Assembly (NCBI RefSeq): GCF_988243305.1
Contig: NZ_OZ547136.1
Length of the DNA: 64,000 bases
Strand: one strand, 5' to 3'
Positions 3,001 to 6,000 of this stretch are shown piece after piece. The position numbers are program-made. Position 1 is the first letter of the stretch; the number at the start of each line of letters is the position of its first letter.

Positions 3001-6000
3001 CGGCGTGTCCTGTTGGTGGGTGACCACATGCAGCTTCCTCCATTGTACTCAGATGCCCACAAGGCGGCATTAGCGAGGAAGCTGGGTATCAATAACTCCC
3101 GCACTGAAATTGACGAGGTATTACGAAGTGACTTTGCCCGAGCCTTCAACTCTGCTTATGGTGCGCAGACGAGTGCAGCTTTGATGACCCAGTATCGTAT
3201 GGCTCCACCGATTGGTAATCTCGTATCGAAGACGTTTTATGACGGGAAGCTTCTGAATGGAGTACGGGCAATTCCGGATGTCTATCAGCAAGCTCCGGAA
3301 GCGTTACGTAGCGTTGTAACCTGGCTTGATACTGCTAATCAGGGCCACCGAGCACATCATCTTGAAGATCGCGGAACAAGCATTTACAACCGATGTGAAG
3401 CTGACGAGATTATTTCTGTTCTTAAACAGGTGTCAGAGAATGAAGAATTTGTCGCTAAGCTTTCAAAACTTGTTAGCAAAGATGAAGCCGCTATCGGCGT
3501 GATATGTATGTATGCCGAACAAAAGCGGTTACTCCGTCAGAAATTCAATCAGGAAATCTGGAGCGAGGGATTTAAGGACATTGTTAAAATTGACACTGTT
3601 GACAGTTATCAGGGAAAGGAAAATCGGATCATTATCCTGTCACTGACGCGTTCGGATAAGCAGCATAGCCCAGGTTTCTTACGCGTTCCAAACCGTATAA
3701 ATGTCGCGATGTCACGCGCAATGGATCGACTGTTGATTGTGGGTAATGCCGATATCTGGAAGGGAAACAATAAAGAATTGCCATTAGGCTACGTTGTAAG
3801 TTATATGGCTGAGCGAGGTCAGGAAGCTGGATACAGGTTCCTCTCTGCTCAGCAGGGAGGCAAAAAGAAATGATATCTGATAACAAAGTTACCTATCATG
3901 AGGTTGACTTCCTGCTGCCAGCACAGAGGTTTAACATTCAGTTTTCCTATGTTTCCCAGAAGGGGCTGCCATTTATCCGGGAGTTTGTGCTGAGACTTGT
4001 TCATGTAGCTTCGATGAGCAAAGCACAAATAGCAACCTATTTCGGCCTGACCCACCGTGAGACAGAGGAGGCGATTTCCGATCTTGTGCAGCGTGGCGAA
4101 TTGACGCTCTCCTCAGACGGCAGACTGGCCTTAACAGACAAATCAAATGGCTATTTTTCAGAGGTTGGCGAGATACCGCATCTTTCAACTATTCAGGACA
4201 GTGGCTGTACCTTATCCTTTGATTTAGCCACATTTAGTTGCTTCAGCAACCAGGCTTTTCAGGACCACTGGAGGGGAGGGGTAACATTAAAGGTTGATGA
4301 CAACAACATTTCTCAAAGTGAGAAACTGGTTGAGAAGCACTTTCAATACCAGTTTAATCAAATCCTGGATAAAGGTTACCTGTCTCACCTGCAGGTTCAG
4401 GTCGGAAAAGAACAACCTTCTATCTATACCGTTAATTCTGTTAATAAGCTGCGGCAAATACCACTCCGTTTAACAACGGAATTTAAAATGGATAGCGATG
4501 GTAAGGCTGTCGAGCGTGAAGACTATGAACAGTTAAATAGTTCGGAATGTGTTCATGAGTTAATGGCTGTTGAGATAGCCAGGTTATCACGGCATAACAA
4601 TACCATGAGTATTTTTAAGGCCATGCAATCCATTAACGATGACCTTACGCTTAAGCTGTTTGACTCTAAAACGAATCGACTTAATCCGTTGTTTATCAAA
4701 GATATGCAAGCACTGGAAGAATACTCGTCCTCAGGCAGAACGACTTTTTTAGGTCCGGTTTATTCTAAAAACAACTGGGAAAAGCTGCAGAAAGCTCTGG
4801 CACCAGCGCTCAATCAGCGTATCAGAGATAAAACTGATTATGGAGGTAGCCCGTTCATCTGGGTGGCACCATCAGATCCCTACTGGTCAAAAAGCATTCG
4901 ATTTATCTCAAGCCTGAGCAATTTTCTTAGCAAGTCGGCTACGAAGGATAAGCAGCTGTATAAACCGGTGCTGTACGTACCTGTCCGGGATGCAGCTGAT
5001 GCTCGGGTTGCCAGACAGTGGAAGTATGAACTTGGGCAATTCCATGAGTACGCTAAAGGACTAGTTGAGGGGCTGTTAGATGGTAATGTTGAGATCCTTC
5101 ATCTTGAGGATGAGTTATCTGCCGTTATCTATCATATTTCTCAACCCGAAATATTGCCTGTAACGATGCCACTGGGCTTTATCACAACGAACAAAGAAAC
5201 GGTTAAGATTATTGGTACTCTGGTTACTGAATATATCAAAGGCACCACTGGTTTTGATAAGTTTCATGACTGTGGCGCAATTTCGGCAATGATTAAGAAA
5301 GGTTGAGCTGTTGGAACAGGAGGTATGGGGCATGTTTGCGTATTTTTATGGAAAGAAATAACCCAATGACGGCGTTACTCTCCAACTGGGTTGACGCGTG
5401 CTGCCTGTTAATGGCTCCGCTGAATGATGCCCTATACCGTTATGTGATGAACACCCGCCTGGGAACCATCCACGGCACGTCGGTCGGCGAACTGCTGGCG
5501 TGGATCAAAGAAGATGAAAACCCTCGCAAAGGCGAGATGGTGCTGATTATTGAAGGCCATAAAGCCCAGGATGACGAACTGCCCGCCGATGCGCTGCGTA
5601 CGCTGGCGCTGTTGTAGGCTGAGCTGCCGTTGAAGCAAGCGGCGGCGTTGGCGGCAGAAATCCACGGAGTGAAGAAGAATGCGTTGTATAAGTATGCGCT
5701 GGAACAGCAGGGGGAATAAGCCCCTGCTGCCGGTTTTGCCGGGTGGCGCTTGCGCCTTACCCGGTCTGCTCATTGGGACAAGCGTTTAGTTAACGGGCAC
5801 CGCCTCAAACACCAGCGTTTCCAGCGGCTGCAACGTAATCACCGTCGCGTTTTTATACTCAACGGGCACGGTTTTATTGCTGCCGTATACCGCTTTCAGA
5901 CTAAACTGCGCCACGTCTCCTGTCGGTATTTCGAAATCCTTAGCCAAATCCAGATAGTAGGCCTGTGGCTTATCCGATGGGTTGCGCAAACCGAGAATGG

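Follow-up and report, generated by a model that had tools for sequence, protein, structure and literature searches.

Directly downstream of a kinase-helicase gene module, the 64,000-nucleotide stretch of DNA analysed here (contig NZ_OZ547136.1 of RefSeq assembly GCF_988243305.1; hereafter the window) carries what appears to be the 3′ end of the housekeeping gene rsmI. A fragment in this position raises the questions of what it is and where it came from, whether it retains any activity, and whether the truncation was caused by the module beside it.

The rsmI remnant and its lesions

The original prediction described an orphan RsmI-like 3′ fragment of some 80–110 codons at 5366–5719 with an in-frame TAG, and made its case depend on similarity to RsmI. 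That similarity is clear, and the fragment is real rather than a chance open reading frame. By blastn, positions 5458–5716 of the window are 84.6–86.5% identical to the rsmI gene resident in practically all complete E. coli genomes. When the TAG is read as Gln, the translation matches positions 204–287 of the NCBIfam equivalog model NF011570 (E=7e-44) and residues 1–46 of the 46-residue Pfam family RsmI_C (PF23016; E=2.7e-19). RefSeq labels this stretch in identical islands '16S rRNA methyltransferase; internal stop; incomplete; missing N-terminus'. The remnant occupies 5459–5719 on the + strand and comprises codons 201–286, one extra Glu codon and a TAA stop (5717–5719), amounting to 86 codons or 260 of the 861 nt of the gene. 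It is colinear with the 3′ end of rsmI, including the sequence of the RsmI_C HTH domain, and the methyltransferase domain (residues 1–200) is wholly gone. The predicted codon count therefore stands, although the predicted interval has to be shortened: rsmI-derived sequence starts only at 5458/5459 (nt 602, codon 201), and the first 93 bases belong elsewhere. The ATG at 5366 falls in unrelated sequence just 3′ of the preceding gene, positions 5372–5458 are part of an IS66 tnpC gene, and the RsmI portion of the 5303–5722 translation, the frame in which the fragment was first read, begins at TIHG.

What is left falls well short of a complete enzyme. It scores 150 bits with NF011570, where a full-length protein must reach 502, and 58.9 bits with TIGR00096 (cutoff 167.9); Pfam finds RsmI_C only, with no match to the TP_methylase catalytic domain. 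The reading frame is also interrupted twice. A nonsense codon, TAG at 5615–5617 (+ strand), lies inside RsmI_C at the position of Gln254, which is encoded by CAG in every orthologue examined. A 1-nt deletion (GAAACC>GAACC, 5464–5467, + strand) has removed an A at 5465/5466, seven bases past the junction with the upstream sequence; the base is present in E. coli and Enterobacter rsmI and in all other orthologues compared. In addition, residues that are otherwise invariant among all orthologues have been replaced in four motifs (GAP>GTS, WVK>WIK, NRRK>NPRK and LKKA>LKQA; that is, A>T, P>S, V>I, R>P and K>Q). Because the catalytic domain is absent, the frame carries both the TAG and the deletion, and invariant residues are replaced, the remnant cannot be an enzyme; with its remaining HTH domain cut by a stop codon, activity of any kind does not appear plausible. 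We conclude that 5459–5719 is very probably the last third of a foreign rsmI gene, now dead, and that no working gene is encoded there.

The IS66 junction and the Mokosh operon

The sequence immediately upstream of the remnant is an 87 bp scrap of an IS66-family element (5372–5458, + strand) that matches ISEc23/IS682 tnpC copies at 92–95% identity by blastn. It corresponds to nt 682–768 of the 1593 nt tnpC gene (aa ~228–256 of 530) and is all that the site retains of the element: there is no tnpA or tnpB, there are no inverted repeats and neither IS end is present. Base-by-base comparison places the switch at …GATGAACACCCGC|CTGGGAACCATCCACGG…, where IS66 identity stops at 5458 and rsmI identity starts at 5458/5459, one C being ambiguous. 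The junction at 5458–5459 (+ strand) thus joins tnpC nt 768 to rsmI nt 602 across a 1-base (C) microhomology, and its sequence, …AACACCCGC|CTGGGAACC…, is identical among island variants. A junction that falls inside tnpC does not mark where the element inserted; it is the scar of a deletion.

The scar is present in 511 of 5426 complete E. coli genomes (~9%), at least 96.5% conserved and always within mobile islands, where it occurs in three variants. In the window type (298 genomes, all at least 99% identical), the kinase-helicase module is followed by the 87 bp of IS66. In the N24 type, which has no Mokosh genes, yfjJ is followed by 117 bp of IS66. In the SCU-109 type (25 genomes; at the tRNA-Phe gene pheV), the scar is preceded by an IS66 element interrupted by IS100 that retains tnpB and tnpC nt 1–768. 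The three agree in their junction and carry the same 1-nt deletion, TAG and unusual replacements. The IS66 remnants (87, 117 and ~1245 bp) always end on the right at tnpC nt 768 and differ at their left ends, and this common right end with three left ends suggests a single ancestral IS66-rsmI deletion followed by independent left-side deletions. A further tnpC fragment on the right-hand side of the SCU-109 island was considered as the other half of the left-hand IS66. By blastn it does not match the ISEc23-like element, which rules out insertion of the block into a single IS66 copy.

The module itself is a Mokosh type I anti-phage defence system, identified with PADLOC at 1–5306 on the + strand. 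mkoA runs off the left end of the window and ends at 3873, and mkoB occupies 3870–5306. MkoA, which combines NERD, protein-kinase and SF1-helicase domains, matches PDLC03921 over its full length (E=0), and MkoB matches PDLC03923 (E=1.9e-151); literature searches on 'TOTE conflict system' returned nothing specific. The side left of the scar holds Mokosh type I in 298 genomes and nothing in the others.

No more than 66 bp separates the mkoB stop at 5306 from the IS66 scrap. The scar follows this mkoB allele in 298 of 298 cases and the mkoB 3′ end never occurs without it, an association that is explained by clonal descent given that all such copies are at least 99% identical. Proximity had suggested that an old insertion or deletion junction lay at this point and that the module might have replaced the 5′ part of rsmI. 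There is indeed a deletion junction, but the partner of rsmI is IS66 tnpC and not the kinase-helicase module. Replacement by the module can be set aside, as the same junction is found in N24, which lacks the module, and in SCU-109, where ~1.2 kb of IS66 occupies that side. Moreover, the same junction, TAG and deletion occur in variants without the module, so the truncation is older than the module and not its product.

A chromosomal block probably captured by mobile islands

The remnant is the left edge of a block with the order rsmI′-'enterotoxin'-malY-like-malX-like-kbaY′-agaR-garD′, which extends from 5459 to ~14500 and measures ~7.7 kb when IS sequence is left out. The fragment is thus an orphan in that the 5′ part of rsmI is missing, yet it is not isolated. 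It is followed by an intergenic spacer (5720–5785) containing a REP-like palindrome, and then by a convergent gene labelled 'enterotoxin' or 'alpha-galactosidase' (629 aa), whose 3′ part (5786–6164, − strand) and 5′ part (7474–9012, − strand) flank an IS. This IS3-family element (IS629-like; 1309 bp, 6165–7473, + strand) contains ORFs, is specific to the window's strain, where it splits the 'enterotoxin' gene, has flanks that overlap by 4 bp (the target duplication) and is 98.4% identical to IS3-family copies of strain E686. Beyond it, on the − strand between 9002 and 11796, lie genes for a MalY/PatB-like C-S lyase (9002–10180) and a MalX-like PTS IIBC protein (10189–11796); the RPAi primers for the malX PAI marker of ExPEC match neither the window nor related loci, and no link to that marker is claimed. 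Two small remnants of a kbaY-like class II aldolase gene (11874–12212, − strand) mark an internal deletion of the aga operon and are assigned on the basis of RefSeq annotation at the colinear NCTC86 locus together with Enterobacter homology. They are followed by an intact agaR (12461–13285, + strand; NF040755 AgaR, 463 bits) and, at the right edge of the block, by a garD (galactarate dehydratase) pseudogene (13348–14502, − strand) that is 5′-truncated and frameshifted. The kbaY-like and garD coordinates were transferred from NCTC86.

The closest relatives of this arrangement are found in other Enterobacteriaceae. From the first base of the rsmI remnant to the kbaY remnant, 5.36 kb is colinear with Enterobacter cloacae M-7 (86.2% identity), E. 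hormaechei subsp. hoffmannii (86.1%), E. quasihormaechei (86.0%) and E. soli (85.3%), and the homology runs straight through the non-coding spacer past rsmI. Farther on, agaR and garD′ align in the same order with other Enterobacter, Lelliottia and Kosakonia loci, where an intact aga operon, lost from the island, lies in between. The homology is thus colinear, intergenic DNA included, with loci that bear the intact genes. In a search using one genome per species, orthologues of the 'enterotoxin' with 74–92% amino acid identity were found in Enterobacter, Lelliottia, Kosakonia, Yokenella, Raoultella, Klebsiella, Kluyvera, Pluralibacter and Buttiauxella, among others. The gene natively adjoins rsmI in Enterobacter-like genomes, and 34 loci of other species have a full-length rsmI (286 aa) directly downstream of, and convergent to, the orthologue. 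More distant relatives (31–47% identity) occur in MAGs of Verrucomicrobiota, Planctomycetota and Gemmatimonadota. Pfam and NCBIfam detect no domain in the protein, and as it is the product of an ordinary chromosomal gene in many Enterobacteriaceae, the toxin label looks unfounded.

From these comparisons, we infer that the block is a chromosomal piece of another enterobacterium with a gene order like that of the Enterobacter cloacae complex and its relatives, although none of the species sampled is similar enough to be put forward as the donor, the best (Enterobacter) reaching ~86%. The rsmI piece taken by itself is no closer to Enterobacter (over 249 nt: E. coli 86.7%, Salmonella ~86–87%, Enterobacter 82–85%), and the donor assignment therefore depends on synteny and on the longer block.

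These figures bear on a different reading, according to which the block is an ancient intragenomic duplicate of E. coli's own garD-aga-rsmI segment that has since decayed. The order garD′, agaR, kbaY′, rsmI′ is presumably also that of the E. coli K-12 map, and the rsmI piece is marginally nearest to E. coli rsmI (33 differences in 249 aligned positions, with no more than 85.1% identity to the others). In a decaying pseudogene, however, a margin of 1–2% over 249 nt does not rise above noise. The interval from kbaY′ to rsmI′ is occupied in the block by the 'enterotoxin', malY-like and malX-like genes, as in Enterobacter, whereas the native E. coli locus has yra fimbrial genes at this point; the Enterobacter homology of the spacer and the confinement of the block to mobile islands at three sites in 511 of 5426 genomes likewise speak against duplication, which we regard as very improbable. 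Nor is the remnant a piece of the host's housekeeping gene. The resident E. coli rsmI is intact between lpoA and yraK, and a search with the 601 nt of its 5′ part found a single copy, always with at least 90% identity, in 5424 of 5426 complete genomes. The same search found no 5′ part elsewhere in the island and no second genomic copy of it.

An island in the chromosome of E. coli NCTC86 is colinear with the window at 99.2–99.9% identity. That island starts just past clpA with genes for a P4-type tyrosine integrase and for AlpA-like, YfjI and YfjJ/Gp2 proteins, and continues with a gene for a 1652-aa NERD-kinase-helicase protein, a 478-aa gene, the scar and sugar-metabolism genes. The same island lies after dgcT in strains E686 and N24, so that scarred islands occupy three sites, two of them next to clpA and dgcT, respectively, and the third at pheV. 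The clpA and dgcT sites are what we take to be the serW and serX neighbourhoods of K-12, in support of which a 14-nt sequence, TGGCGGTGAGGGGG, located 160 nt before the integrase, is presumably a tRNA-Ser 3′ end; ARAGORN scans of the window and of the left ends of the islands examined detected no tRNA. In the plasmid collection, full-length matches were confined to megabase-sized records or the end of a 38-kb contig, which do not amount to evidence for a genuine plasmid copy.

A history consistent with these observations can be proposed, in which the deletion and the point lesions are read from sequence comparisons and the order of events is reconstructed from present-day variants. On the evidence of synteny and distribution, a garD-agaR-[aga operon]-malX-like-malY-like-'enterotoxin'-rsmI stretch would have entered a mobile island. 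Illegitimate recombination at the 1-base microhomology would then have joined tnpC to rsmI, with loss of the IS from mid-element to its 3′ end and of 70% of rsmI from its 5′ end, so that nothing of the methyltransferase domain was left. The nonsense codon, the 1-nt deletion and the several replacements of invariant residues would have accumulated in the remnant afterwards. Synteny and distribution further suggest that the scarred block moved among E. coli islands at the clpA, dgcT and pheV sites and that later, independent left-side deletions trimmed the IS66 remnant, one of which would have placed the Mokosh operon no more than 66 bp from the IS66 scrap in the window lineage. Taken as a whole, this history of a foreign rsmI remnant, an IS66-associated deletion, decay and spread among islands is in our judgement very likely to be correct.

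Possible functions, significance and comparison with known systems

The conservation of the scar and its strict linkage to mkoB, together with the REP-like palindrome 3′ of the fragment, could be taken as signs of retained function. The candidates are a chimeric protein encoded at 5366–5617, an RsmI_C HTH peptide, a terminator or insulator for the Mokosh operon, and a patch of homology for module exchange. The chimeric ORF has 83 codons, runs from the ATG at 5366 to the TAG at 5615 directly 3′ of mkoB, and could be co-transcribed with that gene. It is restricted to the window type because the other variants differ in sequence to the left, and so lack its ATG and upstream context. No sigma-70-like promoter and no terminator-like site on the + strand was found between 5200 and 5900. 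Rfam gave nothing above threshold, one of its sub-threshold hits being to the REP-derived naRNA4 at 5706–5766. An antisense ORF (5432–5773, 113 aa) has no family match and was treated as spurious. The remnant is, on these signals, probably not expressed.

Nor do the codons look constrained. Six of seven codon differences between the window and N24 are non-synonymous, as are all three of those between the window and SCU-109. The resulting nine of ten would be as neutral drift predicts, in a sample of only ten changes. The truncation and disabling lesions are common to all copies, and purifying selection is absent as far as those ten changes go. With the HTH domain cut by the TAG and the linkage to mkoB attributable to clonal descent, we give retained function very little credence. 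The same applies to a related proposal, that the IS66′-rsmI′ scar is a fixed island boundary to the left of which defence cargo is swapped and that the scar or the 5366–5617 ORF has gained a role, which strikes us as highly doubtful. Were it true, the scar or the ORF might, for example, terminate or insulate the operon, or provide the homology at which modules are swapped. The reading that we prefer remains that of a decayed remnant.

As such, the locus carries little biological weight: among the contents of a mosaic tRNA-associated island, a pseudogene scar like this one is standard and routine, and the annotation of the NCBI pipeline already calls it a pseudogene. Literature searches found no paper on rsmI/yraL remnants in islands. 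The common junction nonetheless provides a clean, single-origin marker for the movement of one cargo block among three chromosomal sites, and it shows that the Mokosh operon arrived beside the scar after the scar had formed. It also documents some 7.7 kb of Enterobacter-like chromosomal DNA as island cargo in ~9% of complete E. coli genomes. There is a practical side as well, in that the '16S rRNA methyltransferase' label could mislead text-based screens for aminoglycoside-resistance methylases, and the 'enterotoxin' label on the neighbouring gene could do the same for toxin screens.

Compared with RsmI itself (YraL, the 16S rRNA cytidine-1402 2′-O-methyltransferase; NF011570/TIGR00096, with domains PF00590 and PF23016), the remnant offers only the last 86 codons, colinear with residues 201–286. 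The IS66 scrap likewise resembles the ISEc23/IS682 group over its 87 bp; a sister island variant retains tnpB and the first 768 nt of tnpC of the same element, whereas the window lacks inverted repeats, tnpA, tnpB and a complete transposase. A precedent for a housekeeping-gene 3′ fragment lying as a pseudogene in or beside mobile DNA is icdC at prophage e14, a gene remnant left by site-specific integration, whose intact counterpart sits at the opposite att site. An origin of this type would have an element integrate site-specifically in the rsmI 3′ end, supply a new 3′ end and leave the old one at its far border, and the fragment does lie where the mobile-element genes (integrase, AlpA, YfjI, YfjJ, Mokosh) give way to metabolic ones. 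This origin is nonetheless the least probable of the explanations and can be dismissed: there is no second rsmI 5′ part and the resident gene is far from the island in its lpoA/yraK context, the fragment adjoins an internal piece of tnpC and not an att site, the sites used are those next to clpA or dgcT (with the presumed 14-nt tRNA-Ser 3′-end repeat by the integrase) or at tRNA-Phe, and the DNA past the fragment is likewise foreign and decayed. Site-specific integration into rsmI was accordingly rejected, the island remnant being foreign and having neither a paired intact copy nor att repeats.

The locus instead resembles the mosaic tRNA-associated genomic and pathogenicity islands of E. coli. 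Such islands have a modular build, with modules separated by IS elements (PMC3203889). They share with the present one a P4-type integrase, AlpA, YfjI and YfjJ genes, many IS, aerobactin and Ag43 cargo, and modules that are common to islands at different tRNA sites. There is no difference in kind, and the garD-aga-rsmI segment is simply another module with decayed edges.

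The Mokosh module and the scar behind it

The gene pair that the original prediction called a kinase-helicase module (window 1–5306, plus strand) is, by its model matches, a Mokosh type I anti-phage system. MkoA is open at the left end of the window and ends at 3873 (PADLOC PDLC03921, E=0); it combines NERD, protein kinase and SF1 helicase domains and is 1652 aa long in E. coli NCTC86. MkoB follows at 3870–5306 on the plus strand (PADLOC PDLC03923, E=1.9e-151). Among E. coli complete genomes, the window's mkoB allele occurs 298 times, each time ahead of the IS66'-rsmI' scar, in which a piece of an IS66-family tnpC is fused to the 3' remnant of rsmI. 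Islands of the window/NCTC86 type, which carry the module, and of the N24 type, which carry the scar without it, have one junction and one in-frame TAG in common despite a divergence of ~6% across the captured chromosomal block (93.5–94.3% identity over 2.8–3.6 kb). This divergence exceeds that typical of the E. coli core and suggests that the scarred block has long existed beyond E. coli, or moved between its lineages. In public MAGs, contigs assigned to Collinsella sp. and Lachnospiraceae match this segment of the E. coli island at 99.9–100% identity and are almost certainly binning contamination.

Relics of the captured chromosomal block

The gene annotated as 'enterotoxin' or 'alpha-galactosidase' (5786–6164 and 7474–9012, minus strand) is conserved next to rsmI on the chromosomes of Enterobacter, Raoultella, Klebsiella, Buttiauxella and others, and has relatives at 31–47% in MAGs of Verrucomicrobiota, Planctomycetota and Gemmatimonadota. 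Neither Pfam nor NCBIfam has a domain for its product, and calling it a toxin seems to be an artefact of annotation. In the window, this 629-aa gene is interrupted by a 1309-bp IS3-family insertion sequence (6165–7473), IS629-like, with a 4-bp overlap between the flanks that represents the target duplication. NCTC86 lacks this insertion, and copies 98.4% identical to it lie at other positions in E686. More relics of the block that holds rsmI' occupy 11874–14502, namely two kbaY-like aldolase scraps, a 5'-truncated and frameshifted garD, and an intact second agaR (12461–13285); cross-talk between this extra AgaR repressor and the resident aga operon is conceivable. N24 retains additional agaS' and kbaZ' scraps.

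A possible attachment site and other cargo

At the island adjoining clpA, TGGCGGTGAGGGGG (positions 15087–15100 of that locus) sits 160 nt upstream of the integrase. We take it to be the tRNA-Ser 3' end in reverse complement, and as such it fits an att repeat of a serW/serX-targeting island. The remainder of the window (cargo regions 38426–41107, 47823–57149 and 60115–63036) is typical pathogenicity-island cargo, including several scattered IS copies, an Ag43-family autotransporter, a second SF1-helicase-like ORF (893 aa) with weak matches to the anti-phage ProA/Hhe models, and genes for aerobactin synthesis and a TonB-dependent siderophore receptor, which matching genomes annotate as iuc genes and iutA.
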